Positions 6,177 through 22,459 of a stretch of DNA of 64,000 nucleotides are shown here, piece by piece. Below the pieces are notes generated by a model. It saw nothing but the letters and a program-made list of their open reading frames with translations, did no database searches and had not been told where the DNA came from. The translations under genes were made by a program, and so were the position numbers. This stretch comes from an uncultured Sutterella sp. (lineage in GTDB: Bacteria > Pseudomonadota > Gammaproteobacteria > Burkholderiales > Burkholderiaceae_F), in NCBI GenBank assembly GCA_900545335.1, contig UQYP01000001.1, forward strand, positions 77,775 to 141,774. The letters are read 5' to 3'. The first letter of the stretch is position 1, and each line of letters begins with the position of its first letter.

Positions 6177-7892
6177 ATGACTACTTTAGTGACACTCCAG
6201 GCCGCCGAATTAGCATTCGGCGACCAGCCTCTTTTGGATCATGCTGATTTAACCGTTGCAGACGGTGAAAGAATCGGCATCATCGGTCGTAACGGCACCG
6301 GTAAAAGCTCGCTTTTGCGTGTCATTGCAGGCGCTGACAAACTCGATGACGGCACCAAAACCGTCATGGACGGTCTGGGTATTGCCTACGTCGAGCAGGA
6401 GCCCTTTCTGCCCGAAGCGCAGACGTTGCGAGAGTCCCTCATTTTGCGGGGGAAATTAGATGAAGAAAGTGATGAACAGATTAAGTGGCGGCAGATTGCA
6501 AAACTTGACGAATATCTTCATCGCTTTGAACTCAATGCTGACAGACCGCTCCATGGCGCTTCCGGCGGGGAGAAAAAAAGGGCGGCTTTGGCACTCGCTT
6601 TTGCTCAAAATAAAGACCTTTTGCTTTTGGATGAGCCAACCAACCACCTGGATATCGACGCGATTTTAATTCTCGAAGAATTAATCAAAAATGAATATCG
6701 AGGCTCAAAATCCCTGATGGTGATTACTCATGACAGAGCCTTTTTAGATTCCGTGAGCACTCGCATCATTGAGTTGGATCGGGGCATCCTCAGAAGCTAT
6801 CCGGGTAATTTTGATGCCTATGAAAACCGTAAAGAGCAGGAGCTGGCTGCAGAGGATATCGCCCGCAGGAAATTTGATAAATTTTGGGCTCAGGAAGAAG
6901 TCTGGATACGTAAGGGAATTGAGGCACGAAGAACCAGAAATGAAGGCCGTGTGAGACGCCTGGAGCGTTTACGTGAAGAACGTGCAGCCAGACGCGATCG
7001 CTTGGGGCAAATTAATCTCAATATCGATGCCGGAATGAAAAGCGGCAAGATTGTTGCAGAACTTGAAAAAGTGAGCCTGGCCTTTGACGACAAAGTGATC
7101 GTCAAGGACCTTGACTTCAAATTGCTCCGAGGCGACCGCTTAGGTCTTGTTGGACACAACGGTGTAGGAAAGAGCACATTGATTTCCCTTATTTTGGGAA
7201 AACGTCAGCCGGATAGCGGAAGCGTTAAATTAGGAACCAATCTCCAAATCGCTTACTTTGATCAATTGCGTGCACAATTGGATCCCAATAAAACCGTTGC
7301 AGAAACCATTTCTCCGGGCAGTGAGTGGATTGAAGTTGGTGGGAGTAAAAAACACATAATGGCCTATCTTGGGGACTTTCTATTTCCGCCAAGACGCGCC
7401 AATGTTCCGGTATCCAATTTATCCGGAGGCGAACGAAATCGTTTGCTTTTAGCCAGATTGTTTGCTCTTCCTGCTAACCTGCTGGTGCTTGACGAACCGA
7501 CCAATGATTTGGATATCGACTCGCTTGAACTTTTAGAGCAGACTCTGCAGACTTATCCCGGCACCTTAATCCTCGTCAGTCATGACCGACGTTTCTTAGA
7601 CAACGTCGTCACAGAGGTTTTAGCGCCTGAAGGAAACGGGCTTTGGCGAGAATATGTCGGAGGCTATTCAGATTGGCAGCACTACAGACCCAAGACAGAG
7701 CCTATAGTTAAAAAAGAGCCTTCTGTCGATAAAATTGCACAAAAAAGGCCTAAAACTGTCAAACTCAAGTTAACTTACAAAGAAAATAAAGAATTGGAGG
7801 CCTTACCGGAACATCTGATGCAACTTGAAGCTCAGCGTGATGAATTGATTTCTGCAATGAACGCTCTCAAGTCACGGTGCTCAGGATATTAA
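6177..7892 (+). CDS. uup: ABC-F family ATPase Uup-like (two ABC domains). The annotated frame ends prematurely; the C-terminal coiled-coil domain continues in the +1 frame to 7998.
   Basis: There are two Walker A motifs (GRNGTGKSS and GHNGVGKST), two signature motifs (ASGGEKKRAAL and LSGGERNRLLL), and an inter-domain linker. The out-of-frame segment 7861..7998 encodes ...QGYQRWEELENKKAL, which matches the Uup C-terminus (...FERWEYLEAL). Confidence 0.8.
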   Translation: MTTLVTLQAAELAFGDQPLLDHADLTVADGERIGIIGRNGTGKSSLLRVIAGADKLDDGTKTVMDGLGIAYVEQEPFLPEAQTLRESLILRGKLDEESDEQIKWRQIAKLDEYLHRFELNADRPLHGASGGEKKRAALALAFAQNKDLLLLDEPTNHLDIDAILILEELIKNEYRGSKSLMVITHDRAFLDSVSTRIIELDRGILRSYPGNFDAYENRKEQELAAEDIARRKFDKFWAQEEVWIRKGIEARRTRNEGRVRRLERLREERAARRDRLGQINLNIDAGMKSGKIVAELEKVSLAFDDKVIVKDLDFKLLRGDRLGLVGHNGVGKSTLISLILGKRQPDSGSVKLGTNLQIAYFDQLRAQLDPNKTVAETISPGSEWIEVGGSKKHIMAYLGDFLFPPRRANVPVSNLSGGERNRLLLARLFALPANLLVLDEPTNDLDIDSLELLEQTLQTYPGTLILVSHDRRFLDNVVTEVLAPEGNGLWREYVGGYSDWQHYRPKTEPIVKKEPSVDKIAQKRPKTVKLKLTYKENKELEALPEHLMQLEAQRDELISAMNALKSRCSGY

Positions 7893-8015
7893 ACAACAGA
7901 CAGAAGCACTTCAAAACTTGGAAACTGAAATCAGTCAGGGGTATCAACGCTGGGAAGAGCTGGAAAATAAAAAAGCGCTCTGTGAGAATAACAAATAAGA
8001 ACCTTTATCATTTAC

Positions 8016-8056
8016 AAAAACTATCGAAAACAAATTTTCGATAGTTTTTCTCTATT
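8016..8056 (+). terminator. Rho-independent terminator downstream of uup. It has a perfect 15-bp inverted repeat, AAAAACTATCGAAAA / TTTTCGATAGTTTTT, followed by a T-rich tract.
   Basis: Seen directly in the sequence at 8016..8049, with a 4-nt loop (caaa). It sits 18 nt after the +1-frame stop at 7998. Confidence 0.7.
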
Positions 8057-8113
8057 AAATAATTAGGATTTATTGAAAAATTTCAGATAGATCCTTATTA
8101 TTCGCCTTCTATT

Positions 8114-8132
8114 GATAATGATTATCATTTGT
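8114..8132 (+). promoter_or_regulatory. Fur box (ferric uptake regulator operator) in the promoter of the heme-uptake operon
   Basis: GATAATGATTATCATTTGT matches the 19-bp Fur consensus GATAATGATAATCATTATC at 15 of 19 positions. A second AT-rich hexamer array (GTAATAATGATTTTCGATT) lies immediately downstream. The box is about 45 nt upstream of the ATG at 8175. Confidence 0.7.
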
Positions 8133-8174
8133 AATAATGATTTTCGATTTATTTCTATTGATAAAGGGCGGCAG

Positions 8175-9578
8175 ATGCAGCAAAAGAGCCTTCACAAATC
8201 ATTTGAGTCATCCCAGCGTTCCATGATGGGAAATCACGCTTCTGCTTTGGAAGATATGGTTCATTTCGAAGCAGAAATTACTGATAACCCGTTAAAAAAC
8301 GCTTTCAAAGGCAAAGCTGCCGTCCACACTCATATTCCCGGACTAAGCTACATGGGTGATGAAGCCATTTCTGTAATTAAGAATCAATACGAAAATAAAA
8401 GACAGGGGACAAGTTTGGCCTACATCAACGTCCCTTTTTGCGAAACCCGCTGCCTATACTGCCTTTTTTATCAAAATCCGCTTCAAGCAGAGTCCAGTGA
8501 GCATTACACCAACCTGCTGATTAAAGAATTACAGCTTTGGAGTGATATGCCCGCTCAAAAAAACGAGCCCATCCATGCCGTTTATTTTGGGGGCGGCACT
8601 CCAACTGCTTTAAATCCTCAGGATCTCTATCGCTTAATCACCGCAGTCAAAACCTATTTGCCGCTTGCCAATGACTGCGAAATGACGCTTGAAGGCAGAA
8701 TTCATCATTTCCCGGAAGAGAAAATGGAAGCCGCCTTCAAAGCCGGCATCAATCGCGTCTCACTCGGCGTTCAAACTTTTAACACTCAGGTTCGACAAAC
8801 AATGAGACGGGTCGATGACCGAGACACAATGATTCGCGCCATCGAAACACTCGCATCATTTAACCAGGCAAGCATTGTTTGTGACTTGATTTACGGCTTT
8901 CCCTATCAGGACATGTCTGTCTGGGAAGACGATGTTAAAACCGCAATCACGTTGCCGCTCGATGGCATTGACTGCTATCAGTTAAACGTTTTTGAAAAGT
9001 CCCCGCTCGGTAAATTTATCGCAAACGGCAAGCTTCCTGCCGGAGCTGATAAAGAAGAACGCGCAGAAATGTTTGCTCGATCTGTTGAACTCTTGACAAA
9101 TGCCCAATGGCGCCGTCTTTCGAATAACCACTGGTGCCAAACGTTCCGCGAACGCAATATCTATAACCGCTTCGGCAAAAGTGCAGCCGATTGTCTTGCC
9201 TTTGGAAGCGGAGCCGGCGGAAAGTTAAACGGCTACAGCTTCATGATCGAAAGAAAGTACGACGAGTGGGCTAAAAAAATTGAAAACGACATTAAACCCA
9301 TTGCTTTTGCAAGTGCTCCGAACGATCACTGGCACGCCCTGCGTACGGTCTCCTCCGAAATGGAACTCGGACGCATCAACATGCGCCGTTTAAGCGACAT
9401 TTATTCCCTGCCTCTTGAAGCGCTCAGTCAGGATGTTTTCAAACAATGGACTAAAGCCGGTCTGATTAATCCGGTCAGTGACTGGATGGTGCAGACCGTT
9501 GCCGGTCAATTCTGGCATACCACGATGGCGCAATTACTGGTCAATGTTTTAACTAAGCGGCTCGCACAAGCCAAGTAA
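8175..9578 (+). CDS. hutW: HemN-family (class C) radical SAM enzyme, ChuW/HutW-like putative anaerobic heme-degrading methyltransferase
   Basis: It has the CxxxCxxC motif (CETRCLYC) in YINVPFCETRCLYCLF, the HemN GGGTP motif (VYFGGGTPTAL), and a HemN_C-like C-terminus. It lacks the PRYTSYPTA motif of true HemN. It sits first in a Fur-box operon with a TonB-dependent receptor and a HutX-like gene. An AAGGG Shine-Dalgarno sequence lies 6 nt upstream. The ORF-track start at 8112 overlaps the Fur box, so I rejected it. Confidence 0.6.
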   Translation: MQQKSLHKSFESSQRSMMGNHASALEDMVHFEAEITDNPLKNAFKGKAAVHTHIPGLSYMGDEAISVIKNQYENKRQGTSLAYINVPFCETRCLYCLFYQNPLQAESSEHYTNLLIKELQLWSDMPAQKNEPIHAVYFGGGTPTALNPQDLYRLITAVKTYLPLANDCEMTLEGRIHHFPEEKMEAAFKAGINRVSLGVQTFNTQVRQTMRRVDDRDTMIRAIETLASFNQASIVCDLIYGFPYQDMSVWEDDVKTAITLPLDGIDCYQLNVFEKSPLGKFIANGKLPAGADKEERAEMFARSVELLTNAQWRRLSNNHWCQTFRERNIYNRFGKSAADCLAFGSGAGGKLNGYSFMIERKYDEWAKKIENDIKPIAFASAPNDHWHALRTVSSEMELGRINMRRLSDIYSLPLEALSQDVFKQWTKAGLINPVSDWMVQTVAGQFWHTTMAQLLVNVLTKRLAQAK

Positions 9579-9620
9579 AGATTTTTCAACCAAAAGAGAA
9601 AAGCTAATAACTGTTTCTCT

Positions 9621-11696
9621 ATGACTAACATGACAAAAAGTCTCTCTTTTAAGAAAAGCTATCTTGCTTTAGCTGTGGCACTTTCTCTTCCGTTAATCAG
9701 CGCTCAGGCTGCCGAAAGTTACAAAGCTCAGGACGTGGTTGTGACCGCATCGCGCGTTGAACAGCAGCTTGCCGATGTCAATATGAGCGTATCCGTTATT
9801 ACGAGAGAGGATATTGAACACAGTGCCGGCGCACAAACTATTGCTGATTTATTGGAAAGTAATGTTCCCGGCATTCGCGTCAACAATGACGGCGGACAAG
9901 GTATCGATCGCATCAAAATTCGAGGAGAAGATGCTTTCAGAACAGTGGTCATGGTGGACGGGCAAAGAATTTCAGAACAAAAATCTATGTCCGGCGTGCC
10001 GCTTCTCATTGATCCCTCTCAAGTGGAAAGAATTGAAGTCATTCGCGGTCCTGCCTCCGTTCTTTACGGATCCGATGCAATTGGCGGAGCTATCAACATC
10101 ATCACCAAGAAAGGTGGGGACAAACCTTTTGAAGCTTCAGTTTCTACGGGTTTTAACTCTTCTTCTGACGGTAAAGATGCTTCCTTCTCAATTTCCGGCT
10201 CCAGTAACGGCTGGAACTACAGATTGGGAGCCGGCATTCAGGATCATGACAATTTAGATACGCCTGTCGGAGAAATGCCGCATACCGAATTCAGTTCAAA
10301 ATCAGCTGATTTTTTCCTCTCTTACGACATCGATCCCAATAAAACCATCGGCATTTCTGCCAGCCATTATGACTTAGACTTTTCCTCAGGAAGCATCACC
10401 TACGCCAATCCTGATGACTTTTGGGTTGAAGTTCCCGAATGGAAAAGAACTCGGGGATCGATTTTCGGAGAATTTAAAAACCTAACGGATAATCTCGTCA
10501 GATTACGTATTGATGTCGGGCATGAACAAAATAAAAAACTGATGACCAATCACGTTGCAGATGTCTTTTATCCCAATCCTTCTATGCCTATCGGCATTCC
10601 CTATTATGTGGAAAACAACGCCGATAACAAACTCAACACAACCAGTGCATCTGTACAAGCCGATTGGCAAATTGCAGACAGTCACTACTTGATTACCGGA
10701 TACGAGTTCAGCTTAGACGATCTTGATGCGAACAGCTCAACTTACATGAGCTTAATGAAGCAAATTATGTCCAGCAAAGACTTTGACGGCAAAATGACGC
10801 GTCATTCTGTTTTTGCAACCATGGAAAGCACCGTTTTAGATTCATTGTCATTGAACTACGGGCTTCGCTATACATGGTTTGACAGTGAAATGGACATCAA
10901 AGTCAAAAAGGGGACCAGTCCTGACAGCTCAGACGATGGAAGCGACGGAAAGGTCGTTTTCAATTTGGGAGCCACTTGGAAACCTATTGAAGATTTAGCT
11001 CTGCGCGCAAATTGGTCACAGGGCTATCGCTATCCTCTCCTGCAAGAACTTTATGTCGACACTGCCATGGGAATGAGTGGGGGATCGACTTTGGCCAATC
11101 CCGACCTCAAACCCGAAACTTCCAATAATTTTGAAATCGGTTCTCGCTATACAAACGGTACTTTGACGATTGATGCCGCACTCTTTTACAGTGATGCCGA
11201 CGACTACATCACGACGATTCCCATTACCGATGAAATCTCCCAATATACCAATGTCGGGAAAGCAAAGACCATTGGTTTTGAACTGGATACCGGAATCAAA
11301 ATCGGCAACTTCGAACCGTATACAACACTGACACTTTTAAGACGTGAATACCAGGAAAATGGTATTAAAACTACCAAATCCGGCACTCCTAAGGTAACCG
11401 CTCGCTATGGTGTTCGCTATGACGGACAGTATGAAGGAGCAGAGCTGCGGGCAGACATTTATGCGATCAGTCAAAGCGCAACAGAAAGCCATGATATGGT
11501 TGCTGAAAAGCCCACAATTACAAGCTACGGCGGTGCAACAACCTTTAATATTGCCGGCGGCGTTTCTTTCGGTCCGCAAAATGCGTATAGCTTAGATGCT
11601 GGCTTTTATAACATTACCGACAAGAAATACCAGAATAACGGTTCGATCTATGAACCCGGCAGACACTTCGCCGTGAAGTTGAATGCTAAGTTTTAA
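9621..11696 (+). CDS. TonB-dependent outer-membrane receptor, putative heme/hemoprotein receptor
   Basis: It has a signal peptide, the TonB box DVVVTAS, a plug domain and a 22-strand barrel, and the characteristic C-terminal aromatic residue (…KLNAKF). YRYP…NPDL motifs sit in the position of the FRAP/NPNL heme-receptor motifs. The Fur-regulated context supports an iron-related substrate. Confidence 0.8.
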   Translation: MTNMTKSLSFKKSYLALAVALSLPLISAQAAESYKAQDVVVTASRVEQQLADVNMSVSVITREDIEHSAGAQTIADLLESNVPGIRVNNDGGQGIDRIKIRGEDAFRTVVMVDGQRISEQKSMSGVPLLIDPSQVERIEVIRGPASVLYGSDAIGGAINIITKKGGDKPFEASVSTGFNSSSDGKDASFSISGSSNGWNYRLGAGIQDHDNLDTPVGEMPHTEFSSKSADFFLSYDIDPNKTIGISASHYDLDFSSGSITYANPDDFWVEVPEWKRTRGSIFGEFKNLTDNLVRLRIDVGHEQNKKLMTNHVADVFYPNPSMPIGIPYYVENNADNKLNTTSASVQADWQIADSHYLITGYEFSLDDLDANSSTYMSLMKQIMSSKDFDGKMTRHSVFATMESTVLDSLSLNYGLRYTWFDSEMDIKVKKGTSPDSSDDGSDGKVVFNLGATWKPIEDLALRANWSQGYRYPLLQELYVDTAMGMSGGSTLANPDLKPETSNNFEIGSRYTNGTLTIDAALFYSDADDYITTIPITDEISQYTNVGKAKTIGFELDTGIKIGNFEPYTTLTLLRREYQENGIKTTKSGTPKVTARYGVRYDGQYEGAELRADIYAISQSATESHDMVAEKPTITSYGGATTFNIAGGVSFGPQNAYSLDAGFYNITDKKYQNNGSIYEPGRHFAVKLNAKF

Positions 11697-11708
11697 AGCC
11701 TCTGACGA

Positions 11709-12260
11709 GTGATGAAAATGACCGTTAAAACGGCCTATTGGAAATCGCAAGAACTCGTCATGATCGGTGTTTTTGCTGCTGCCATTAAGCTGTCCTCTCT
11801 CCTGATAGCTTTAGCTGGCGGCGGCATGAACCCGGTCACGCTTATACTTAAAAATCTTGTATTCACTACGTTGTTGATTGTGCTTTTGGCAAAAGTCAGA
11901 AAAAGCGGAACGCTTTTGCTCTTTACAGCTGTATCAATGATCGTGAGCGTGCTTTTGATGGGTGGAAGCATCACGTTGCTGCCCGCCGCACTGGTCGGCG
12001 CTTTGGCAGCAGAATTCGCTATTTGGCTCACAGGGGGCTTTAAAAATTCTTGGTCAACATACGTGGGCGTTGCCGTCTACGACCTCGGTACTAAACTCTT
12101 TTCTGTCGCCGTCTCCTATCTCATGATGCGGGAAACGCCGGCACTGGTTGTCTCTGTACTGCCCATTATTTTTATCGGTTACACAGGGTGCCTCCTTGGC
12201 CTTTTCACAGGCTTTCGGGCATTAAAAGAACTGCGGCACGCCGGCATCGTCAGGAGCTAA
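11709..12260 (+). CDS. Small polytopic membrane protein, putative ECF-transporter substrate-capture (S) component
   Basis: The 183-aa product is very hydrophobic, with about 5-6 predicted TM helices. It lies immediately upstream of the EcfT and EcfA-A' genes. I could not assign a specific S-component family by eye. Confidence 0.5.
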   Translation: MMKMTVKTAYWKSQELVMIGVFAAAIKLSSLLIALAGGGMNPVTLILKNLVFTTLLIVLLAKVRKSGTLLLFTAVSMIVSVLLMGGSITLLPAALVGALAAEFAIWLTGGFKNSWSTYVGVAVYDLGTKLFSVAVSYLMMRETPALVVSVLPIIFIGYTGCLLGLFTGFRALKELRHAGIVRS

Positions 12261-12262
12261 TC

Positions 12263-13036
12263 ATGAATCATTCAATCCTGACGCAAATCGAAGCGCGTAC
12301 TAAGTTACTGCTCACTCTTTTGGGTGCTATCTCAACAATCGCCTACTCCAGTCTGGCGGCTCAACTGATACTTTTTGCGTTGAGTTTTTTAATGGCCTTG
12401 CTGATTAAGCGCCCGACTTTAGTTTTTGTTTTGTATCTGCTCATGGCTTTGATGATGGGATTGGCGATCGGCTGCACAGCTGTCATCACATTTTTTATCC
12501 CTGCTCTCGGAGAGATGACGGTGCAAAACCTGCTCATACCCTTTTTACGCGGTCTGACCATGATGAACCTGGTCATGGGGCTGGCGCTTTCCACCAAAAT
12601 CGAAAACATTATGGCAGCACTTTCTCAACTGCATCTGCCGTTCGTCATTACGTTACCCTCTACGGTCATGATCCGTTTTATCCCCACCTTTGCCCATGAT
12701 ATTGCTCAGGTTTGGGAGACGCTCAAAATCAGAGGTTGGCAGTTGAATTTCACAATGCTTTGTACCCATCCGTTTTTGTGTGCAAGGCTCATTTTCACGC
12801 CCATATTGTTCCGAGCGCTCAAAAGCAGTGAAGCCCTCGGGGTGGCAGCGGAATTAAAAGGACTGGACAAAGGGTTGGGTAACCGCGCAAGCCGTGCCTT
12901 TTCTTCGGAAGAAAAGCTCTCCAACCGTGATTGGCTTACTTTGGCTACGGGAGTCTTTACTGTACTTCTCGCCCTGGCAGCTGAAATTTATCTGGGCGAT
13001 TGGGGCATTGACCCGAACACAGTCCGTTTGCCTTGA
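12263..13036 (+). CDS. ECF transporter transmembrane (T) component, EcfT/CbiQ family
   Basis: The membrane protein is 258 aa. The C-terminal region (…RALKSSEALGVAAELKGLD) resembles the EcfT coupling-helix AxxxARG-type motifs. Its start is 2 nt after the S-component stop, with a CAGGAG Shine-Dalgarno sequence. Confidence 0.6.
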   Translation: MNHSILTQIEARTKLLLTLLGAISTIAYSSLAAQLILFALSFLMALLIKRPTLVFVLYLLMALMMGLAIGCTAVITFFIPALGEMTVQNLLIPFLRGLTMMNLVMGLALSTKIENIMAALSQLHLPFVITLPSTVMIRFIPTFAHDIAQVWETLKIRGWQLNFTMLCTHPFLCARLIFTPILFRALKSSEALGVAAELKGLDKGLGNRASRAFSSEEKLSNRDWLTLATGVFTVLLALAAEIYLGDWGIDPNTVRLP

Positions 13037-13052
13037 TAGTGGGGAAGAAATC

Positions 13053-14546
13053 ATGATTGTTTTTGAAAATGTTTCCTACCGCTACCCGTTTCAAAACGAC
13101 TGGGCTGTCCGGAATTTAAATCTGACGGTTTCTCCGGGCGAAGTTGTACTGGTTACCGGTGTATCAAGCTGCGGAAAAACGACACTGATGCGATTAGCCA
13201 ACGGCCTTTGCCCACACTACTATGCGGGCGAAATGAAAGGACACGTCCGAGTTTTCGGTAAAGATACTGAGCAATCCTCTGTATCGGATATTTCCGATAA
13301 AGTCGGCACCCTCTTTCAAGACCCGGAAGATCAATTCTTCGCGCTCAATGTACGAGATGAAATGGGGTTTGCACTCAAAGTGGCCGGAACCGATCCCGCT
13401 ACCGTTAGAAAACGCATCAATAACGTGGCCGGTCGATTGCATATTAAAGACCTTTTGACTCATTCGATTTCTGCACTCTCAGAGGGGCAAAAACAGCGTG
13501 TAGCGCTCGGTGAAATTCTTGTCTCTGAACCGCAAGCTCTCATCCTGGACGAGCCGTCGGCTAACTTGGATCCGGAAGCTACCGACCGGCTCGCCCGGGA
13601 AATCAAGAGACTCAAACAATCGGGGTTTGCGATCCTCGTGGTCGACCATCGGCTGCATTGGCTCGAGAGCGTTGCCGACGAAGTGATCGTGATGCAACAG
13701 GGCCAAATAGTTAAAAGAGGTCGATTTGAGATTCTTGAAAATCAAACGTTGCGTGATGAGTACGGCCTTCGTAAAGCCCATGTACCCGATGTTCGGGAAA
13801 GGCTACCGCAAACCGATCCGGAAAATCCCATTTTGATGACGGCCGATCTGACCTTTGATTATGAACGAGCCAATCGTCATTCCAAATTGGCAAAGTTAAA
13901 ACAGCTTTTTAAAGGGGTATCGACCGAGCATAAAGAGCTTTTACTCAAAAATATTCATTTCAAAATCGGTCCCGGCATCACGGCGCTGATCGGCGAAAAC
14001 GGCAGCGGGAAAACCACCTTGGCCCGACTCATCACCGGACTGAATATCGGCAGCGGCGAACTCTATCTAAAGGGAGAAAAAACCTCTGCCGCAACGCTTC
14101 TTAAACACACAGGACTGGTACTTCAAAATGCTGATCATCAACTGCAGATGAGAAGTGTCAGGGAAGAAATTTCCGCCTGCCTTTTTGCTGCACGACGTAC
14201 TCAGCAAACGGACGAAATCGTTAATGAATTACTGGAGACGTTTTCTCTCAAAGAGCTCGCAGACCGCCATCCTCAATCTCTTTCCGGCGGTCAAAAACAG
14301 CGCCTGGTCATTGCGTGTGCTTTGGCTAAGAACCCCGACATTCTCATTTTGGATGAACCCACCAGCGGTTTAGACGGCGCCAATATGAAGCGCGTTGCCG
14401 ATGCACTTCGAGAGCAGGCTAACAAAGGAAAAGCCGTCTTACTGATTACCCACGACCTGGAACTTCTTGCCTTATGCGCCGATCAGGCTCTCCGAATGAA
14501 TTCACTAAAAAAAGAATTTTTAAATACGGAGAATAACAATGGATAA
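13053..14546 (+). CDS. Fused duplicated ABC ATPase (EcfA-EcfA'-like) of an ECF/CbiO-type transporter
   Basis: It has two complete ABC domains. Walker A motifs are GVSSCGKTT and GENGSGKTT, signature motifs are LSEGQKQRV and LSGGQKQRL, and each domain has a Walker B LILDEP. There is no transmembrane region. A GGGGAAG Shine-Dalgarno sequence precedes the ATG at 13053. Confidence 0.8.
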   Translation: MIVFENVSYRYPFQNDWAVRNLNLTVSPGEVVLVTGVSSCGKTTLMRLANGLCPHYYAGEMKGHVRVFGKDTEQSSVSDISDKVGTLFQDPEDQFFALNVRDEMGFALKVAGTDPATVRKRINNVAGRLHIKDLLTHSISALSEGQKQRVALGEILVSEPQALILDEPSANLDPEATDRLAREIKRLKQSGFAILVVDHRLHWLESVADEVIVMQQGQIVKRGRFEILENQTLRDEYGLRKAHVPDVRERLPQTDPENPILMTADLTFDYERANRHSKLAKLKQLFKGVSTEHKELLLKNIHFKIGPGITALIGENGSGKTTLARLITGLNIGSGELYLKGEKTSAATLLKHTGLVLQNADHQLQMRSVREEISACLFAARRTQQTDEIVNELLETFSLKELADRHPQSLSGGQKQRLVIACALAKNPDILILDEPTSGLDGANMKRVADALREQANKGKAVLLITHDLELLALCADQALRMNSLKKEFLNTENNNG

Positions 14547-14979
14547 AAAAGAAAAAATTCAAGAATTAATGAACGCCAAAAAGCCCGTTACCTTGGGATT
14601 AATTGCCAGGGAACTCGGCTGCACGGATCTTGAAGCAGCCCAAGCCCTGCCCGCTGACGTTTGTTCATTCATCAAGGATATCGCCTCGTTTGATGAACTG
14701 TGGGCTCAAATGAGCCAATGGGAAAAGGTGACCCTTTTCATCATCCATGAAGGTCATGTTTTTGAAATTCAATCCAAACTCAGTGCCGGTAAACGTGCAA
14801 TGGGTTACTACAACATTTTGTCCAAAGACGCCGTAATCGGCGGTCATCGGATGCTTTGGAAACCGCAGCCTTCATTTCGATGCCGTTTATGGGACGGGAA
14901 TCTCATTACGTGGCCTTCTTCGGAAAAAATCAAAAACTGCACTTTTGCGTTTACGTCGGTCGAGAAAATCATCAATTGA
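14539..14979 (+). CDS. hutX: HutX/ChuX-family cytoplasmic heme-utilisation/heme-carrier protein (putative)
   Basis: In the 146-aa product, the conserved blocks FDELW…EKVTLFIIHEGHVFEI…GKRAMGYYNIL…IGGHRM parallel the ChuX/HutX pattern (…TLVHT.DVILEF…HGYFNL.GK…SGHI). It overlaps the ecfA stop by 8 nt. Confidence 0.55.
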   Translation: MDKKEKIQELMNAKKPVTLGLIARELGCTDLEAAQALPADVCSFIKDIASFDELWAQMSQWEKVTLFIIHEGHVFEIQSKLSAGKRAMGYYNILSKDAVIGGHRMLWKPQPSFRCRLWDGNLITWPSSEKIKNCTFAFTSVEKIIN

Positions 14980-15047
14980 TTGAATCGGTTAAAGAAGGTT
15001 TTCAAAAAGCCAAAGCTCAATTTTGTCAATAAAAAAGAGGGTTCCAG

Positions 15048-15557
15048 ATGTCTGCTTTAATCATTATCAGCTCTATTACGGGAAACACTTGGAAAGTCGG
15101 TGAGGCGCTGAATCGGGTCTATCCGACAACTTCTCTTAAACGCACCACAGATGTACTCAAATGCACAGAGCTTCTTGACCAACACAATAAAGTGATCATC
15201 GGATTTTGGTGTGACAAAGGAGGCCTGCCGCCCGATCTGGTCCAATTGGTACCTTATATTCGCAATAAATCTCTGGGGATTTTTGCCACCATGGGCGGCA
15301 ATCCTCAAAGCGATCGAGCTCAAGAGTGGTTCAGACGCCAGTGTGACGCAGTTGTCGGCACAGAGCGCAGCAACTGTCTTGAAGCCACATTCCTGTGTCA
15401 GGGCAAAATCAATCCGGTTTTAATTGAACAAATGAAAAAAATGCCGGGCTACAAGGAAACACCCGAATCCGTTGCCCGTCGAGGGGAAGCCACAAAACAC
15501 CCCAATGAAGATGATTACAAGGCCGCTTGCAACGCCTTCCGTGCCTTTTTAGCTTAA
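15048..15557 (+). CDS. Short-chain flavodoxin
   Basis: The N-terminal FMN phosphate-binding loop ISSITGNTWKV is present. The product is 169 aa. Confidence 0.7.
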   Translation: MSALIIISSITGNTWKVGEALNRVYPTTSLKRTTDVLKCTELLDQHNKVIIGFWCDKGGLPPDLVQLVPYIRNKSLGIFATMGGNPQSDRAQEWFRRQCDAVVGTERSNCLEATFLCQGKINPVLIEQMKKMPGYKETPESVARRGEATKHPNEDDYKAACNAFRAFLA

Positions 15558-15568
15558 GAGTTTGAACC

Positions 15569-16216
15569 ATGGAAAATTTACAGTCTCTGTACACATTAGT
15601 CGGACCGGCCGGTGTAGCACTGATTTTTGTTGCTCTATACGCTTTATACGTTTCGGTTTGGCTTATCACCTATCTAAACCGGGTATGGAAAAATTTTCGT
15701 CGTGACTTTTTGGATCTGGAAAGCGGAAAAGAGCGCTGTTTAAAAGATATCAATCCGGATACGGCCAATCCGCTTATTCGCATTATTTACGATATTGTTG
15801 CCACGCACGCCTCTCACTCCGATGACATTCGCGCCGAGGTTGCTTACCTTTTCCACAGAAACTTCAAGCGAGTCAGCAACGGTCTGGTTTGGCTCAAGCT
15901 GATCAGTGTCATCTCTCCTTTGCTTGGTCTGCTCGGAACCGTTTTCGGCATGGTAGAAGTCTTTAAAACGCTCTCTTTTACCGAAGTACCTTCCACAGAA
16001 TTATTGGCTGCAGGAATTTGGCAGGCCCTGATTACCACCGTAATGGGTCTTTGCATTGCTATTCCTGTCTTGATGGTTTACTACGGATTGATGCTCAAAT
16101 TCCGCGGTTTTCATATTGAAGCAGTGGAACACAGCTACCGTGCTCTGGAGATTATGAATCGCATTCGAGCTAAAAATAACCCTCACGCAATCAATGATGA
16201 AGAGGAGAAAGAATAA
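15569..16216 (+). CDS. exbB: ExbB/TolQ/MotA-family proton channel, ExbB
   Basis: It has a three-TM topology and conserved C-terminal TM helices (LISVISPLLGLLGTVFGMVEVF…GIWQALITTVMGLCIAIP). It is followed by exbD and tonB. Confidence 0.85.
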   Translation: MENLQSLYTLVGPAGVALIFVALYALYVSVWLITYLNRVWKNFRRDFLDLESGKERCLKDINPDTANPLIRIIYDIVATHASHSDDIRAEVAYLFHRNFKRVSNGLVWLKLISVISPLLGLLGTVFGMVEVFKTLSFTEVPSTELLAAGIWQALITTVMGLCIAIPVLMVYYGLMLKFRGFHIEAVEHSYRALEIMNRIRAKNNPHAINDEEEKE

Positions 16217-16620
16217 TGAGTATTTTCGTCCCTCCCGGTTTATCTCCCATAGATGATGATCCGCAAATCGATTTGACGCCTCTCATCGATTGTCTGTTCA
16301 TGCTGATTATTTTCTTTGTAGTCACGATGAGTTTTTCCAAACCGGTGTTGGAAATTATTCTGCCCGAAAGTGAAACAGCCGAAGTCAAGCGTGCGGACCG
16401 ACAAATCAGTGTAAACGTTCGTGCTGACGGTACCTATTGGATGAATAACCGAACGGTATCCCTGGCAGAGATCGAAGGTGCTCTCATCGCCTCACCAAAT
16501 TCTGTTTTGAATATTCACATGGATGGGAAGGCTTCCTTTGACTCTTTTGTCCCGCTCGTGGATTTAGCCAAAGAAAAAAATGAAGGGCGATTTGTGATCA
16601 GCACACAGGCTAAAAGATGA
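16216..16620 (+). CDS. exbD: ExbD/TolR biopolymer transport protein
   Basis: It carries IDLTPLIDCLFMLIIFFVV, the ExbD N-terminal TM signature. Its start overlaps the exbB stop. Confidence 0.85.
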   Translation: MSIFVPPGLSPIDDDPQIDLTPLIDCLFMLIIFFVVTMSFSKPVLEIILPESETAEVKRADRQISVNVRADGTYWMNNRTVSLAEIEGALIASPNSVLNIHMDGKASFDSFVPLVDLAKEKNEGRFVISTQAKR

Positions 16621-17336
16621 AATCTGTCAAACACATCGCCTATGACGCTCACAAACAAAGCTCAGAAGAGCGACAGGCAAATTTCAGCGCCAAACTTTTA
16701 ACAGGTGTCGTAACGATCACTCTGTTTACTGTGGCCTTTTTGCAATTTTCAGATCCTTTGGCCATGCCTCAAAAGGCGAGCATTGAGCAAAATCCCGTTA
16801 AACCGATCGACAATGTGGCTACTCCTCTTAAAAAGGAACCCCGTTGGGTCATTATGACTATTTCTCCCGGAGCCTGGAAAATCCATTTGGAACAACCGCA
16901 GCCTGTGATTGAAAAAGTCAGAGAAGAAAAACCGATTGAGGTAAAACCCAAAGAAAAACCTAAGCCTGAAAAGAAAAAAACGCAACCTCGGAAAAGCGTT
17001 ACAAAGAGCGTAGGCAGTGCCAAACAAGCGGCTGCCACAACCGGAAGCGGACAAAATACCAACGATATGTCCAATGCTCTGGCGCAAATTGTTCAGGTAA
17101 TCGAAGAACACAAACGTTATCCCAAGCGAGCAAGAGACATCGGCATGGAAGGCTCAACAGTGCTCATCGTCTCCATTGACAGTAACGGCCAGGTGATCGA
17201 TTATCGATTGCGTGACGGAGGAAATGCTCTTTTCAGACGAGCGACCCTATCGGCTGCCCAACACCTTACAGGACTTAAAACACAAATACGCCGAGCGGCC
17301 ACTTTAGAAATTCCCGTTCGCTATGAAATTGACTGA
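16617..17336 (+). CDS. tonB: TonB energy transducer
   Basis: It has an N-terminal anchor, a Pro/Lys/Glu-rich spacer (EEKPIEVKPKEKPKPEKKK) and a C-terminal TonB domain (YPKRARDIGMEGSTVLIVSIDSNGQV). Confidence 0.85.
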   Translation: MKSVKHIAYDAHKQSSEERQANFSAKLLTGVVTITLFTVAFLQFSDPLAMPQKASIEQNPVKPIDNVATPLKKEPRWVIMTISPGAWKIHLEQPQPVIEKVREEKPIEVKPKEKPKPEKKKTQPRKSVTKSVGSAKQAAATTGSGQNTNDMSNALAQIVQVIEEHKRYPKRARDIGMEGSTVLIVSIDSNGQVIDYRLRDGGNALFRRATLSAAQHLTGLKTQIRRAATLEIPVRYEID

Positions 17337-18241
17337 TGGCTATGGATTCTTTCATTCTTGATATCAGAGACCTACACAAAACTTATTCAAACGGATTTCA
17401 AGCCCTTAAAGGCATTTCTCTTCAAATCCGGAAAGGGGCTTTTTTCGGACTTTTAGGGCCGAACGGTGCAGGCAAATCAACCCTAATCAACTCTCTGGTT
17501 GGACTCGTTAAACCCACTCAGGGACAGATTCGTATTGCAGGATTTGATCTCAGCACGCATAAAACTGACGCGCTGATGAATATCGGTGTAGTGGCCCAGG
17601 AAATCCTATGCGACCCCTTTTTAACCGTATATGAAATGCTCTCTTTTCAAAGCGGTTATTACGGGCTCAAACACAATAAGGCTTGGATTGAGGAAATTAT
17701 TGAAAACCTCGGTTTGTCTGACAAAATTCAGACGCCTTGCAGGCTTTTGTCAGGCGGTATGAAAAGAAGGGTTATGGTTGCACAGGCTCTTGTTCACAAA
17801 CCTCCTCTTATCGTACTCGATGAGCCCACGGCAGGTGTAGATGTCCAACTGAGAAATCAGCTCTGGCACTTTATAGAAACATTACATAAAAAAGGACACA
17901 CCATTGTTCTGACCACTCACTATTTGGAAGAAGCCCAGAACCTGTGCTCTGAGATAGCCATCATCAATCAGGGAAAAATCGTCACCAAGGGGAAAACCGA
18001 TGCCTTGCTGTCATCGATGCAACAAAACACTTTGCGGTTTCGTTTAACGAAAGGAGCATTCCCTGCAAGTCTTGCTCCAAGACTGCTTAACCACGAAGCT
18101 CAGTCCTACGTATTGGGTTATACAGACGGCGGTGATTTAACCGATTTGCTGACAGCCTTACGCACAAACCATTGTGAAATTGAGAATGTGCAAACCTCTC
18201 GAGCCTCGTTGGAAGATTTATTTATCAAAGTTACCCAATAA
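17336..18241 (+). CDS. ABC transporter ATP-binding protein (ABC-2 / YadG-like exporter ATPase)
   Basis: Walker A is GPNGAGKST, the signature motif is LSGGMKRRV and Walker B is IVLDEPT. Its ATG overlaps the tonB TGA (ATGA), which suggests translational coupling. Confidence 0.85.
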   Translation: MAMDSFILDIRDLHKTYSNGFQALKGISLQIRKGAFFGLLGPNGAGKSTLINSLVGLVKPTQGQIRIAGFDLSTHKTDALMNIGVVAQEILCDPFLTVYEMLSFQSGYYGLKHNKAWIEEIIENLGLSDKIQTPCRLLSGGMKRRVMVAQALVHKPPLIVLDEPTAGVDVQLRNQLWHFIETLHKKGHTIVLTTHYLEEAQNLCSEIAIINQGKIVTKGKTDALLSSMQQNTLRFRLTKGAFPASLAPRLLNHEAQSYVLGYTDGGDLTDLLTALRTNHCEIENVQTSRASLEDLFIKVTQ

Positions 18242-18249
18242 AATCGAAA

Positions 18250-19035
18250 ATGACCGTTTCCTCACAACCGTTTTCTGCTCGGAATGCTTTTTTCACCTTG
18301 CTGAAAAAAGAAATCATTCGATTTCAAAAAGTTGCCTTTCACAGCATTGCTACACCGGTTTTATCTTCTTTGCTGTATCTGATCGTTTTCGGAGCTGCAC
18401 TACAGGATAAGATTCTGACGGGCTCTCAAACATCGTACTTGGAGTTTCTCGTGCCCGGCCTGGTGATGATGGCTATTTTGCAGAACGCTTTTGCCAATAC
18501 TTCTTCATCATTTGTTCAGTCAAAAATTTCCGGCACGTTGTCGTTTTTACTGGTGACACCGCTTAATAACATCATGATTGCATCGGCCTATGTTTTATCC
18601 GCTGTCTTTCGCGGACTGGTGGTCGGTCTTTGTGTATGGGTGGGCAGTGCCATTTGGATCACTCCCAATATCGGTTCGGCTTTTTGGATTTTTATCTTTG
18701 CACTATTAGGTGCCTTTATCATGGCTTGTCTCGGCCTGATTACAGCCATTTGGGCAGACCGATACGAGCAAATGGGTGTTATTCAAACCTTCGTCATCAT
18801 GCCCCTGACTTTTTTGTCCGGCGTGTTTTATTCCTGTGAGGCTTTACCACAGCCCTGGCGTGATTTAACCGTATTTAATCCGCTGTACTACTTGATTGAC
18901 GGCTTCAGAGGCGGATTTTTAAATCATTTTGAAACAGACCCTTTATTGGCTGTTCTTTTTGGCTTGATGGCCTGCCTCGTTACTTTTTTCATCAGCGTCT
19001 GGCTTTTACGAAAGGGCTATAAAATCAAATCATAA
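18250..19035 (+). CDS. ABC-2 family transporter permease (YadH-like)
   Basis: It is a 6-TM permease of 261 aa, 8 nt after the ATPase gene. Confidence 0.75.
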   Translation: MTVSSQPFSARNAFFTLLKKEIIRFQKVAFHSIATPVLSSLLYLIVFGAALQDKILTGSQTSYLEFLVPGLVMMAILQNAFANTSSSFVQSKISGTLSFLLVTPLNNIMIASAYVLSAVFRGLVVGLCVWVGSAIWITPNIGSAFWIFIFALLGAFIMACLGLITAIWADRYEQMGVIQTFVIMPLTFLSGVFYSCEALPQPWRDLTVFNPLYYLIDGFRGGFLNHFETDPLLAVLFGLMACLVTFFISVWLLRKGYKIKS

Positions 19036-19155
19036 GAGAATAACCACTCTACTGAATAACTTGAGCAGTTGTTTCTCAAAACTTATTTCTTGAAAGGTTC
19101 AATCGGCTTAAAATAAGCGGATTGATGACAACATTTCATGTCCTTGAGGTAAATC

Positions 19156-20997
19156 GTGGCTATTGATTCCGCTGAAATTCGATTCCAGGCACTGAGCCAA
19201 TTAAAGACTCTTGACCAATTTGTTCCGGCTCGTGCAAAAATCGCACCGCACACAGAAGCTCTCAGACAATTTGACCGACGTTCCAACACATGGGAACGCG
19301 TTTCTTACAGAGATTTGGATGAACGGATCCAGCAATGGCGACGGGCTTTTTGCAAGATGGGTCTCAAGCACGGTGATCGAGTAGCGATCTTGCTGCCGAA
19401 CGGAGTCGACGCCGTCTGTTGCGATCAGGCCGTTTTGGCTAACGGCTACGTACCGGTGCCGCTGCACGCCATTGATACGCCGGGGTCCAGTGCCTTTATT
19501 ATTGCGGACAGTCAGGCTTGCGTCCTGGTCACTAACCGACAAAACCGCTGGGATTCCATTTCTCTCAGTCATACGGTTATGCCGGATCTCAGGAACGTGA
19601 TTTTCACGGAAGAATCCTCCCCTGAGGAACGTCGTGACGGAGTAAAACTGTGGGATTTGGAATCGTGGTTAGCCACAGGGCACGGCGTTACAGAATTGCC
19701 CGCTCCTCCCACAGAAGATGACCTGGCTGCCATTGTTTACACCTCCGGAACAACCGGTAAACCCAAAGGTGTCATGCTCACCCATAAAAATGTGGTAAGC
19801 AATGTCATCAACACCTTAAAAACCGTTTATCCCAAACCCGGTGATGTGTTTTTGTCTTTCTTACCCGTGTCTCATACTTTCGAGCGCATGGCCGGTTACT
19901 ATCTGGCATTAGGGATGGGATGCACTATTGTTTACACGCGTTCCATCCAACAATTGGCTGAAGACTTCAGAATCGTACGCCCTAACGTCATCATTTCAGT
20001 TCCTCGTATTTACGAGAGAATTTTTGCCAAAGTTCAAGCCAAATTGGCCCGCGAGTCTAAGTTTGTCCGATTCTTGTTCAACTGGGCCGTCGAAGTCGGT
20101 TGGAGACGATTTAGTCAAAAGTACGGTCTTCCCTGTCAACGAGGCGGAGCAACCGTTTTTGATCCGATTGTTTGGCCGATCCTTGAACGCCTGGTATCTA
20201 AAACTCTGCTCAATCAATTCGGCGGTCAATTAAGAATTGCCATCAGCGGAGGAGCCGCGATGAATCCTAAGGTTGCCAAAGCCTTCTGCGGTTTAGGCTT
20301 ACCGATCATTCAGGGCTATGGGATGACTGAAACGAGCCCCATTATCGCCGGCAACTCTTTGGCCTATAACCATCCGAGCACCGTTGGCAAACCCTTACCC
20401 GAGACGAATGTCCGACTGGGCGAAGGCAATGAAATTCAAGTGAAGTCTGCCTCCGTTATGAAGGGGTATTGGAACAGACCCCAAGCCACACGGGAAGCTT
20501 TTACTGAAGACGGGTGGTTGAAAACGGGCGATGTGGGTGAATTTGATCACGAGGGTTTTCTCAAAATTGTCGGCCGTATCAAAGAAATTATCGTTACCAG
20601 TACGGGTGAAAAGGTCCCGCCGGCTGACTTGGAATTGGCCATTGAAATCGATCCGCTTTTTGATCAGGCTTTAGTAATCGGCGAAAATCGTCCCTTCATT
20701 TCAACGATTGTCGTACTCAATAAAGAAGAGTGGAAAAATTTAGCCGCGACCTTGGATCTGGATCCGAACGATCCTGAAAGTTTAATGGCCAATGTCACGC
20801 GCAATGCGGTCTTAAAGCGAATTAAAGCCGCCGCAAAGGGCTTCCCGCAATACGCCTTGCCCAGAAACGTTTACCTCACCTTAGAGCCTTGGACGATTGA
20901 CAACGGTCTGATTACGCCGACGTTAAAACTCAAGCGTAAAGCATTAAATGAGAAATTTGCTCCGCAAATTCAAACACTTTATGCAGGTCATCGCTAA
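19156..20997 (+). CDS. AMP-forming acyl-CoA synthetase (long-chain-fatty-acid--CoA ligase family)
   Basis: The AMP-binding motif YTSGTTGKPKGVMLTHKN and a downstream TGD motif (WLKTGDVGEF) are present. The start codon is GTG, with a GAGG Shine-Dalgarno sequence. Confidence 0.8.
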   Translation: MAIDSAEIRFQALSQLKTLDQFVPARAKIAPHTEALRQFDRRSNTWERVSYRDLDERIQQWRRAFCKMGLKHGDRVAILLPNGVDAVCCDQAVLANGYVPVPLHAIDTPGSSAFIIADSQACVLVTNRQNRWDSISLSHTVMPDLRNVIFTEESSPEERRDGVKLWDLESWLATGHGVTELPAPPTEDDLAAIVYTSGTTGKPKGVMLTHKNVVSNVINTLKTVYPKPGDVFLSFLPVSHTFERMAGYYLALGMGCTIVYTRSIQQLAEDFRIVRPNVIISVPRIYERIFAKVQAKLARESKFVRFLFNWAVEVGWRRFSQKYGLPCQRGGATVFDPIVWPILERLVSKTLLNQFGGQLRIAISGGAAMNPKVAKAFCGLGLPIIQGYGMTETSPIIAGNSLAYNHPSTVGKPLPETNVRLGEGNEIQVKSASVMKGYWNRPQATREAFTEDGWLKTGDVGEFDHEGFLKIVGRIKEIIVTSTGEKVPPADLELAIEIDPLFDQALVIGENRPFISTIVVLNKEEWKNLAATLDLDPNDPESLMANVTRNAVLKRIKAAAKGFPQYALPRNVYLTLEPWTIDNGLITPTLKLKRKALNEKFAPQIQTLYAGHR

Positions 20998-21036
20998 AAT
21001 AGCAACTTTTGCTGCGAACAGATTGAATTGAAGATT

Positions 21037-22332
21037 ATGGCTGAACATACCAAATTATTACCGGATTGGATGATCGGACTGACCGATCGCATCATGAAGT
21101 ACTACATTGATCGAGAACTCAATGTTGAACCCATTATTCTCGACAGGCATCCGGAGCCTCAGCCCGGTCATCAATACATGATGTACGCACACATCCCGTT
21201 CTGCCATACTCTGTGCTCGTATTGCACATTCCACCGCTTTATCTTCAAGGAATATAAAGCGCGTGAGTACTTTGTGAATTTGCGCAAAGAAATGCAGATG
21301 GCTCGGGACATGGGCTATGACTTTACCTCTATGTATATCGGCGGAGGTACTACCACTATTTTGGAAGACGAGCTGATTCAAACCATTGAACTGGCACGAA
21401 AGCTCTTCCCGTCCATGAAAGAGGTCTCCTGTGAAACCGATCCCGCTCATTTAGCGACAGAAAGTTTCCGAAACCTCAAAGGCTTGGTCGATCGTATGTC
21501 TGTCGGCGTTCAAAGCTTTGATGACAATATCCTCAAAATGATCGATCGGTATGAAAAATTCGGCAGCGGCGAGCAAATTTTCGAACGCATTCAAGCCGCT
21601 CAGGAACTCTTCCCGATCATGAATGTCGACATGATTTTCGGCTTCAGAGGACAAACAGAAGAGATTTTGCAGCGGGATGTAGATTTATTGATGAAATTAA
21701 ATCCCCGTCAGATCACAACCTATCCTTTGATGGTCACCACGCAAACTAAAGCAAGTGTTCGAAATACGATTGCCGCCCCCACAGCCGATCTGGCGGCTCA
21801 GTACCGCATCATTTTGGATACGTTGGGGAAGAACTACAATCAACTCACCTCCTGGACTTTCGGCCGCTCTCACGATGAAGGCTTTGATGAGTATGTCGTC
21901 GATCACGACGAATACCTGGGGCTCGGATCCGGAGCCTTCAGTTTCCTTGGTGATTCGCTGTACGTCAATACGTTTAGTCTGCGACGCTATAACGAGCGCA
22001 TCAGTCAGGGCAAGATGGGCGTAGAGAGAAGAAAGCGTTTCGATAAGCACGCCATTTTGCAATACAGGCTTCTGTTGGGTTTATTTGCCGCTCGCTTATC
22101 GAGAAAGTACTTCCGTGAAGTTCACGGAGTTGATTTAGATCGTGCCCTGTTTAAAGAAATGCTGGGGTTAAAGCTCGCCGGTGCCATTAAAGATAGCCCT
22201 GCGGATCCGGATAATCTCATCGTAACCGATGCGGGTAAGTTCTTAGGCTTAGTCATGATGAAAGCTTTTTATTCCGGCATGGATAACGTTCGGGCTGAAT
22301 TGCGCAAGCCTCTGTCTTCCATTGATATGTAG
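21037..22332 (+). CDS. HemN-family radical SAM protein (coproporphyrinogen-III-oxidase-like paralog; not HydG)
   Basis: It has HIPFCHTLCSYCTF (CxxxCxxC), YIGGGTTTIL (GGGT motif) and a HemN_C-like tail. I took the ATG at 21037 in preference to the upstream TTG at 21028. Confidence 0.75.
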   Translation: MAEHTKLLPDWMIGLTDRIMKYYIDRELNVEPIILDRHPEPQPGHQYMMYAHIPFCHTLCSYCTFHRFIFKEYKAREYFVNLRKEMQMARDMGYDFTSMYIGGGTTTILEDELIQTIELARKLFPSMKEVSCETDPAHLATESFRNLKGLVDRMSVGVQSFDDNILKMIDRYEKFGSGEQIFERIQAAQELFPIMNVDMIFGFRGQTEEILQRDVDLLMKLNPRQITTYPLMVTTQTKASVRNTIAAPTADLAAQYRIILDTLGKNYNQLTSWTFGRSHDEGFDEYVVDHDEYLGLGSGAFSFLGDSLYVNTFSLRRYNERISQGKMGVERRKRFDKHAILQYRLLLGLFAARLSRKYFREVHGVDLDRALFKEMLGLKLAGAIKDSPADPDNLIVTDAGKFLGLVMMKAFYSGMDNVRAELRKPLSSIDM

Positions 22333-22338
22333 GATTTC

Positions 22339-22380: not shown

Positions 22381-22459
22381 TATTTTTTGTAAAAATTCTT
22401 TATAGTTCCAGCGTTGTCAGAAGGTTTTCCAGGACCAAGGAATGCCTTTGACGACAGGA

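Follow-up and report, generated by a model that had tools for sequence, protein, structure and literature searches.

How does heme get from an outer-membrane receptor to the cytoplasm in a Gram-negative anaerobe whose heme operon appears to hold no gene for a periplasmic binding protein? This question is raised by a stretch of 64,000 nucleotides from an uncultured Sutterella sp. (contig UQYP01000001.1, positions 77,775 to 141,774; hereafter the window). In it, the genes of an energy-coupling factor (ECF) transporter, consisting of a substrate-capture component (S), a scaffold and coupling component (T) and a fused duplicated ATPase (A-A'), lie between the genes for a TonB-dependent receptor and the heme carrier HutX. 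Our best reading is that this ECF module has displaced HmuTUV in a Fur-regulated operon for anaerobic heme acquisition and utilisation, and we put the probability that the module imports heme at roughly 0.7. ECF transport of heme has been shown so far only in Gram-positive bacteria; on our best reading, what is new here is its occurrence in the context of an anaerobic operon of diderms. A literature search, whose coverage was incomplete, found no publication that links an ECF transporter to ChuW, HutW or HmuW, to any TonB-dependent receptor for heme, or to the uptake of heme by the taxa discussed below; the term 'ECF' in the papers retrieved on such combinations meant EcFldA or ECF sigma factors.

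The ECF module and its substrate-capture component

An earlier note on this DNA had placed genes for S, T and a fused A-A' between a TonB-dependent receptor gene and hutX. Profile scans with Pfam and NCBIfam (reporting limit E ≤ 0.01 for all family calls) confirmed this arrangement on the + strand (Table 1). The three genes indeed occupy positions 11709-14546, but the starts of T and A-A' were moved downstream of those of their longest open reading frames (ORFs), and S is 182 amino acids long. We start S at the ATG at 11712, where an in-frame GTG is also found at 11709, and T at the ATG at 12263, eight bases past an AGGAG; the start of the longest ORF for T, at 12188, is an upstream GTG. Homologues of S, T and A-A' keep this synteny in 75-80 out of 80 genome loci, which marks the three as genuine genes and not chance ORFs.

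To judge from these matches, the three genes encode a complete dedicated (group I) ECF transporter. The module is not accompanied by accessory genes (N or M/N) of the BioMNY, CbiMNQO or NikMNQO type. Both halves of A-A' are intact in their Walker A (GVSSCGKT and GENGSGKT), signature (LSEGQ and LSGGQ) and Walker B-Glu motifs (LDEPS and LDEPT), and the protein scores 311 bits against TIGR04520 (ECF_ATPase_1), slightly under that model's cut-off of 315. In T, which is 80-92% identical in the closest loci, the coupling motifs KIRG and AAELKG are conserved across 19 homologues, the second with Lys replacing the canonical Arg, as is the motif RFIPtF..D..Q..E.

Trep_Strep (PF09605), whose gathering score it passed, was the only Pfam family that S matched, and no NCBIfam family was matched. 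In particular, the profiles of BioY, CbiM/NikM, QueT, ECF-ribofla_trS (RibU-type) and YkoE (PF09819) gave no match. The families that the earlier note had set against a heme substrate, those for biotin, cobalt, nickel and queuosine, were thus not found for S, which matches Trep_Strep/MptD only. This family is called HtsT in the Rodionov nomenclature (TCDB 3.A.1.31) and its substrate is listed as unknown; the heme system of group A Streptococcus may be the founding member of 'HtsTUV'/Trep_Strep.

Profile comparisons place S in a tight, divergent and distinct subfamily of Trep_Strep/MptD. When the subfamily profile was run with HMMER, exhaustively, against 1.84 billion representative proteins, only 119 clusters were returned at E ≤ 0.001, with scores falling sharply from ~100 to ~55 bits, and hhalign aligned the subfamily with generic Trep_Strep members (all PF09605-positive) over the full length at 99.7% probability and ~19% identity. 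With the wider family S shares a cytoplasmic KV.K.GTL loop and a C-terminal ELRHAG motif (ELRHAGIVR in the S of the window), both of which are probably contacts with T, as well as the fused duplicated ATPase. Unlike generic Trep_Strep/MptD proteins, the subfamily is restricted to diderm anaerobes, is linked to hutW and has motifs of its own, namely GGGMNP after helix 1 and MRExP after helix 5, in loops predicted to face the periplasm. Residues in the middle of the membrane (YD in helix 5 and GY in helix 6) are also specific to the subfamily. In the predicted structure, GGGMNP, MRExP and the mid-membrane Tyr and Asp probably form the binding pocket.

The sequence of S gave zero matches to PDB chains even at E ≤ 10, which left the fold comparison as the informative one. 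An AlphaFold model (54 homologues in the alignment, mean predicted local distance difference test score 79.6) has six helices, and its fold resembles that of solved ECF S components, with YkoE (5EDL) as the best structural match at 17% identity. YkoE belongs to YkoEDC, an ECF transporter for hydroxymethylpyrimidine (HMP) and thiamine precursors; here, in contrast, there is neither a thiamine pyrophosphate (TPP) riboswitch nor any thiamine gene, and the context is one of heme. The heme S components known so far share little sequence similarity among themselves (PMC7299338).

Conservation of the operon across phyla

A scan for S homologues with one genome per species yielded 80 loci with S identities of 44-95%, which were examined as 20-kb slices, the source genome being examined as the 64-kb window. 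Among their taxa are Sutterellaceae, Desulfovibrionaceae, Mucispirillum/Deferribacteres, Desulfobacterales and SAR324. As the closest S homologues (90-95% identity) are in metagenome-assembled genomes (MAGs) labelled 'uncultured Sutterella' and Candidatus Aphodousia, the window represents a gut member of the Sutterellaceae. Operons of this type occur in at least 60 further genomes of anaerobic Gram-negatives, spread over four phyla. Two loci (L021 and L022) bear Gram-positive labels, Acutalibacteraceae/Oscillospiraceae, and carry the full operon. We rejected these as Gram-positive hosts: the contigs bear a TonB-dependent receptor and exbBD and resemble Duodenibacillus-type loci, and they are probably mis-binned contamination.

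The window proteins other than S are widely matched in these 80 loci: T in 77, A-A' in 75, HutW in 70, the flavodoxin in 67, the receptor in 65, HutX in 58, ExbB in 48 and ExbD in 47. Positions were counted only in loci with enough flanking DNA; most absences elsewhere are contig ends. The receptor gene lies directly upstream of S in 55/64 loci and hutW within 3.5 kb in 59/64, and downstream of S we found the flavodoxin gene in 61/63 and hutX in 53/63. In Sutterella, Duodenibacillus, Desulfovibrio, Bilophila, Mailhella and Mucispirillum the genes run in the order hutW-receptor-S-T-AA'-hutX-fld-exbB-exbD(-tonB). The Desulfobacterales and SAR324 have rearranged variants; in that of the Desulfobacterales, S follows hutW immediately, hutX is missing, a PNPOx/HutZ-like gene is present, and the receptor gene occupies another place in the locus. 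The arrangement is a conserved, horizontally spread operon and not a one-off.

Fur-like boxes with at most 5 mismatches precede hutW in 28/62 loci, compared with 14/500 random segments. Many Desulfovibrionaceae loci instead adjoin a gene for a DtxR-type iron repressor, and have a MatE exporter nearby. Across phyla, no protein of the operon is better conserved than S: compared with Desulfovibrio, for example, S is 58-63% identical, A-A' ~50%, and HutW and the receptor ~40-45%. Such conservation of S would be expected from a specific binding pocket.

Substrate, transport route and alternatives

In published hmuTRUVWF operons of Fusobacterium and other bacteria, HmuTUV holds the position of the transporter (PMC10404700). 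These operons, chuA-chuTUV-chuWXY of E. coli O157:H7 and hutBCD-hutWXZ of Vibrio resemble the operon of the window in their TonB-dependent receptor, ExbBD-TonB, HmuW/ChuW/HutW, HutX/ChuX and HmuF/FldH, and their inner-membrane step is carried out by HmuT with HmuUV or by equivalents (PMC10404700). Unlike in the hmu, chu and hut operons, there is no HmuT, ChuT or HutB and no HmuUV at our locus, and the ECF module is found instead. As S-T-AA' fills the slot that HmuTUV holds in the published operons, non-orthologous displacement is the simplest reading.

The earlier note had reported neither an HmuT/ChuT-like binding protein nor an HmuU-type permease at the locus. The profile scans bear this out, with neither Peripla_BP_2 nor FecCD in the operon or among the long ORFs of the window that were scanned (all but seven). 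A set of the HmuTUV/ChuTUV kind (Peripla_BP_2, FecCD and a single ATPase) was likewise absent from the scanned ORFs of the window, to which this check was confined. The sole binding-protein system among them is an unrelated ATP-binding cassette (ABC) set for amino acids (SBP_bac_3/BPD_transp_1) at 34.7-38.1 kb; the other long ORFs scanned are housekeeping genes and the [FeFe]-hydrogenase cluster described below. For the relatives, unassigned ORFs up to 4 kb from the operons were clustered across the 80 loci and representatives of the larger recurrent clusters were scanned, a survey that left out singleton ORFs and most clusters present in three loci or fewer. Peripla_BP_2 and FecCD did not occur in the recurrent clusters scanned. 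These neighbours consisted of a divergent TonB, a DtxR-type repressor, MatE, a PNPOx/HutZ-like protein, a long ExbB and two families without a match.

Some lineages have further ORFs beside the operon that matched neither Pfam nor NCBIfam. In Mucispirillum, conserved ORFs of up to 441 amino acids follow tonB (L033:10585-11859 and five other loci), and a second group, of up to 318 amino acids, lies downstream of the operon in loci of Mailhella and in some of the Sutterellaceae type (L024:16087-16848 and relatives). These are candidate lineage-specific heme-binding lipoproteins or hemophores.

A heme substrate is more strongly indicated than by the position of the module alone, as in four phyla the S subfamily almost always occurs together with hutW, hutX and the genes for a heme-type receptor and an HmuF-like flavodoxin, and a Fur box precedes the operon. 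As called from family matches, the set for anaerobic heme degradation is present (HutW, the HutX carrier and a flavodoxin as reductase partner), although HutX is frameshifted here. From this genomic context we infer both the substrate and the direction of transport; the same holds for the capture of heme straight from the periplasm and for the residues proposed to bind it. In the proposed route, heme would cross the outer membrane via the TonB-dependent receptor, powered by the co-encoded ExbB-ExbD-TonB, and would then be bound in the periplasm directly by the membrane-embedded S, with no soluble shuttle. As S components bind their ligands at nanomolar or better affinity, such a shuttle may be dispensable. 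ATP hydrolysis by the fused A-A', transmitted via the T scaffold, would topple S and free heme into the cytoplasm, where HutX and the HmuF-like flavodoxin would take it over. HutW would open the ring without oxygen, yielding Fe2+ and anaerobilin, and the flavodoxin would reduce the anaerobilin.

Import of heme by ECF transporters has been shown in Staphylococcus lugdunensis (LhaSTA), group A Streptococcus (SiaFGH) and Lactobacillus sakei (PMC7299338). The module of the window resembles these systems as a dedicated S, T and A set in an iron-regulated heme locus, and the capture of heme by a membrane-embedded S without a soluble binding protein, known from all three (PMC7299338), is proposed here as well. 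The differences lie on either side of the transporter. The three Gram-positive systems belong to monoderms with cell-wall relays (Isd, Shr, Shp) and pass heme to an IsdG/HupZ-type fate, whereas here a TonB-dependent receptor with its own ExbBD-TonB stands before the module and the anaerobic HutW behind it.

The earlier note had also called the coupling of a TonB-gated step to an ECF step unusual. This holds for heme, but not as a principle, and the arrangement recurs across phyla. In some Gram-negatives without BtuCDF, vitamin B12 is taken up by the receptor BtuB and the S-component protein BtuM, with no binding protein. BtuM, however, is a solitary S without T or A and is regulated by a B12 riboswitch, whereas here a full ATP-driven module occurs with a Fur box.

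Several observations weigh against heme import through this module. The substrate is assigned through association with neighbouring genes, and the heme specificity of the receptor is itself not clear-cut: its TonB-hemin (TIGR01785) score of 243.6 bits is below the cut-off of 316.85, and it has no His between its FRAP-like (YRYP) and NPNL-like (NPDL) boxes. As enzymes of the HutW type act on metal-free porphyrins too (PMC10114669), the range of porphyrins carried could be wider than heme. The frameshifted hutX may be a pseudogene, with the operon partly decayed here, or an assembly error. It is possible that a binding protein or hmuTUV lies elsewhere in the genome, beyond the 64-kb window. Lastly, two uncultured Sutterella loci (L057:10001-12900 and L059:5341-8243) carry S-T-AA' of this subfamily alone, at 62-63% identity. 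Their neighbours are unrelated (C69 peptidases, a RelA/SpoT-domain protein and a Na/H exchanger), with no hutW, receptor or flavodoxin gene nearby, and the module in these genomes may be a second copy or part of a dispersed arrangement.

The ECF module might import another cargo while heme enters otherwise, and a corrinoid, another metalloporphyrin, a metal-free porphyrin, a thiamine or HMP precursor, or flavin for the flavodoxin can each be considered. We regard this as unlikely. The fold of S is closest to that of YkoE, whose transporter also has a fused A-A', and one generic Trep_Strep member weakly matches the YkoE family PF09819, but the S of the window matches neither this family nor those of other vitamins and metals listed above. 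A search of positions 7000-20000 with Rfam found no cobalamin, TPP or flavin mononucleotide (FMN) riboswitch, or any other family, even at E ≤ 1, and the promoter carries a Fur box. Although the receptor scores 147 bits on the model of the B12 receptor, TonB-hemin tops the receptor families in four lineages. The tolerance of HutW for metal-free porphyrins speaks for a cargo other than heme as well, against which stands the near-exclusive tie of the S subfamily to hutW, hutX and hmuF-like genes.

It is also quite improbable that the true partner of the receptor is an unlinked HmuT/HmuUV or Dpp-like system, with the ECF module as a redundant or auxiliary scavenger, or that the module needs an unlinked periplasmic heme-binding protein. 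Several heme uptake systems often coexist, as do Isd and LhaSTA in S. lugdunensis, the survey covered 64 kb of the source genome and 20-kb slices of the others, and a 424-amino-acid ORF after tonB in Mucispirillum, which has no family match, could encode a heme-binding lipoprotein. However, published hmuW/hmuF operons keep their transporter genes inside the operon, S-T-AA' fills that slot in 55/64 loci from four phyla, and no binding-protein gene recurs nearby among the clusters scanned. Conserved, translationally coupled linkage of this kind would be hard to explain for a bystander. A module that works outward, removing excess heme or toxic anaerobilin, is the least probable of these explanations, and we give it very little weight. 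Heme and anaerobilin are both toxic, and the operon is linked to exporters (the ABC-2 pair in Sutterellaceae and MatE in Desulfovibrionaceae), but these already provide separate candidates for export, and without the ECF module the operon would have no inner-membrane uptake step. To our knowledge, all characterised ECF transporters are importers, a record with which an export role conflicts.

Heme import through the module thus remains our preferred reading. The wider proposal is that anaerobic diderms of the gut and sediments have a widespread new heme route, in which a heme-specific Trep_Strep/MptD S component feeds HutW without a soluble binding protein; we hold this to be about as probable as its opposite. 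The taxa in which the route would operate, to which we give the same even odds, are Sutterella and relatives, Desulfovibrio, Bilophila, Mailhella, Mucispirillum, Desulfobacterales and SAR324.

The surrounding operon and its wider meaning

The module belongs to a run of twelve genes on the + strand (8175-19035), separated by at most 42 nt or overlapping (Table 1). Besides the Fur box upstream, no other such match occurs in the 64 kb, against an expectation of 0.04. A riboswitch for B12, TPP or FMN was considered as an alternative regulator and rejected after the Rfam search described above. The start chosen for hutW agrees with its 467-amino-acid homologues.

Table 1. Coordinates of the heme operon, its control sites and the downstream hydrogenase cluster in the window.
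Feature	Position	Strand	Details
Promoter-like site TTGAAA-17-TATTAT	8073-8101	+	10/12 match
Fur box	8114-8132	+	16/19 match to GATAATGATAATCATTATC; 43 nt upstream of hutW ATG
hutW/chuW, radical S-adenosylmethionine (SAM) anaerobic heme-degrading methyltransferase (anaerobilin synthase)	8175-9578	+	467 amino acids; TIGR04107 rSAM_HutW 495.7 bits, cut-off 400
TonB-dependent outer-membrane receptor, heme-type	9621-11696	+	691 amino acids; Plug and TonB_dep_Rec_b-barrel; best NCBIfam TonB-hemin
S (substrate-capture) component	11712-12260	+	182 amino acids, six transmembrane helices; Trep_Strep PF09605 37.8 bits, cut-off 28.7
T (scaffold/coupling) component	12263-13036	+	257 amino acids; CbiQ PF02361 46.4 bits, cut-off 25
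Fused A-A' ATPase	13053-14546	+	497 amino acids; two ABC_tran domains (188 bits); TIGR01166 cbiO 242 bits, cut-off 211.8
hutX/chuX, cytoplasmic heme carrier, frameshifted	14539-15032	+	PF06228 and TIGR04108 match first ~100 residues only
HmuF/FldH-like flavodoxin (heme trafficking/anaerobilin reductase type)	15048-15557	+	169 amino acids; Flavodoxin_3 98.5 bits
exbB	15569-16216	+	MotA_ExbB Pfam match above cut-off
exbD	16216-16620	+	ExbD Pfam match above cut-off
tonB	16617-17336	+	TonB_C Pfam match above cut-off
ABC-2 exporter ATPase, DrrA-like	17336-18241	+	ABC_tran and DrrA1-3_C; start overlaps tonB stop
ABC-2 exporter permease	18250-19035	+	ABC2_membrane
Two radical-SAM genes, probably HydE/HydG maturases	21028-22332 and 26287-27402		
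Hydrogenase large subunit	22461-23912		
Hydrogenase small subunit	23930-24274		
Cytochrome b	24274-24939		
HydF maturase	25014-26279		

The sequence of the receptor shows a signal peptide as well as a TonB box (DVVVTAS) and the boxes YRYP...NPDL. Operon-linked receptors of other phyla have the same top family, TonB-hemin, and their scores (202-249 bits) are likewise under the cut-off. The receptor of the window is only 54-66% identical to those of its closest relatives (L001-L003), whereas the neighbouring proteins are 85-95% identical; in L004 the receptor keeps 89%. DNA similarity to the relatives is lost within the part that encodes the barrel, roughly 10.3-11.5 kb (~10340-11550). This points to a replaced allele or to surface loops under diversifying selection.

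When aligned with the DNA of four close relatives, hutX shows a 7-nt deletion near 14848, and the gene is out of frame after residue 103. The resulting 146-amino-acid ORF ends in a nonsense sequence, and the genuine last third of the protein is encoded in another frame, up to 15032; full-length homologues (e.g., in L001, L003 and L004) have 165 amino acids. With the frame repaired, HutX matches HutX of V. cholerae (5exv, 2e-23) and ChuX (2ovi). The flavodoxin has a single PDB match, 8G64, the heme-bound FldH of Fusobacterium nucleatum (E 4e-8); the match covers residues 1-158 and includes the H-P-N..D linker motif. FldH is a paralogue of HmuF, which acts as an anaerobilin reductase and heme chaperone (PMC10404700). 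Two relatives differ in this part of the operon. In Duodenibacillus massiliensis, a gene for a 455-amino-acid RRXRR and HNH endonuclease lies between hutX and the flavodoxin gene (L076:13608-14975), with two related endonuclease fragments upstream, which looks like the insertion of a mobile nuclease. One Sutterella MAG has a tandem double hutX (L007:12817-13933).

The start and stop codons of exbB, exbD and tonB overlap. The ABC-2 pair that follows, which scores 203 bits against NF011648 and is thus under the cut-off of 225, is translationally coupled to tonB and probably closes the operon. This pair stays with the heme operon in most loci of the Sutterellaceae, where it is found behind tonB or, divergently oriented, upstream of hutW. 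It may export a product derived from anaerobilin or excess heme. Directly downstream of the operon region lies an [FeFe]-hydrogenase cluster of the periplasmic type (21028-27402), which fits an anaerobic, hydrogen-metabolising member of the Sutterellaceae.

Heme is the main source of iron in the gut, and its uptake by strict anaerobes such as Bilophila, Desulfovibrio, Sutterella and Mucispirillum is poorly known. What gives the finding its value is how widely it is spread among gut anaerobes of current interest, together with its direct testability. If our reading is correct, ECF transport of heme would extend from a few Gram-positive pathogens to four diderm phyla, and the HmuTUV step would be replaceable wholesale by an ECF module. 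The large orphan Trep_Strep/MptD/HtsT family would gain a testable substrate, the first one assigned in Gram-negatives, and the S subfamily beside hutW would be a simple marker of anaerobic heme scavenging in metagenomes. The operon would also offer a natural system to study how a hydrophobic cofactor delivered by a TonB-dependent receptor reaches the inner membrane without a periplasmic shuttle.

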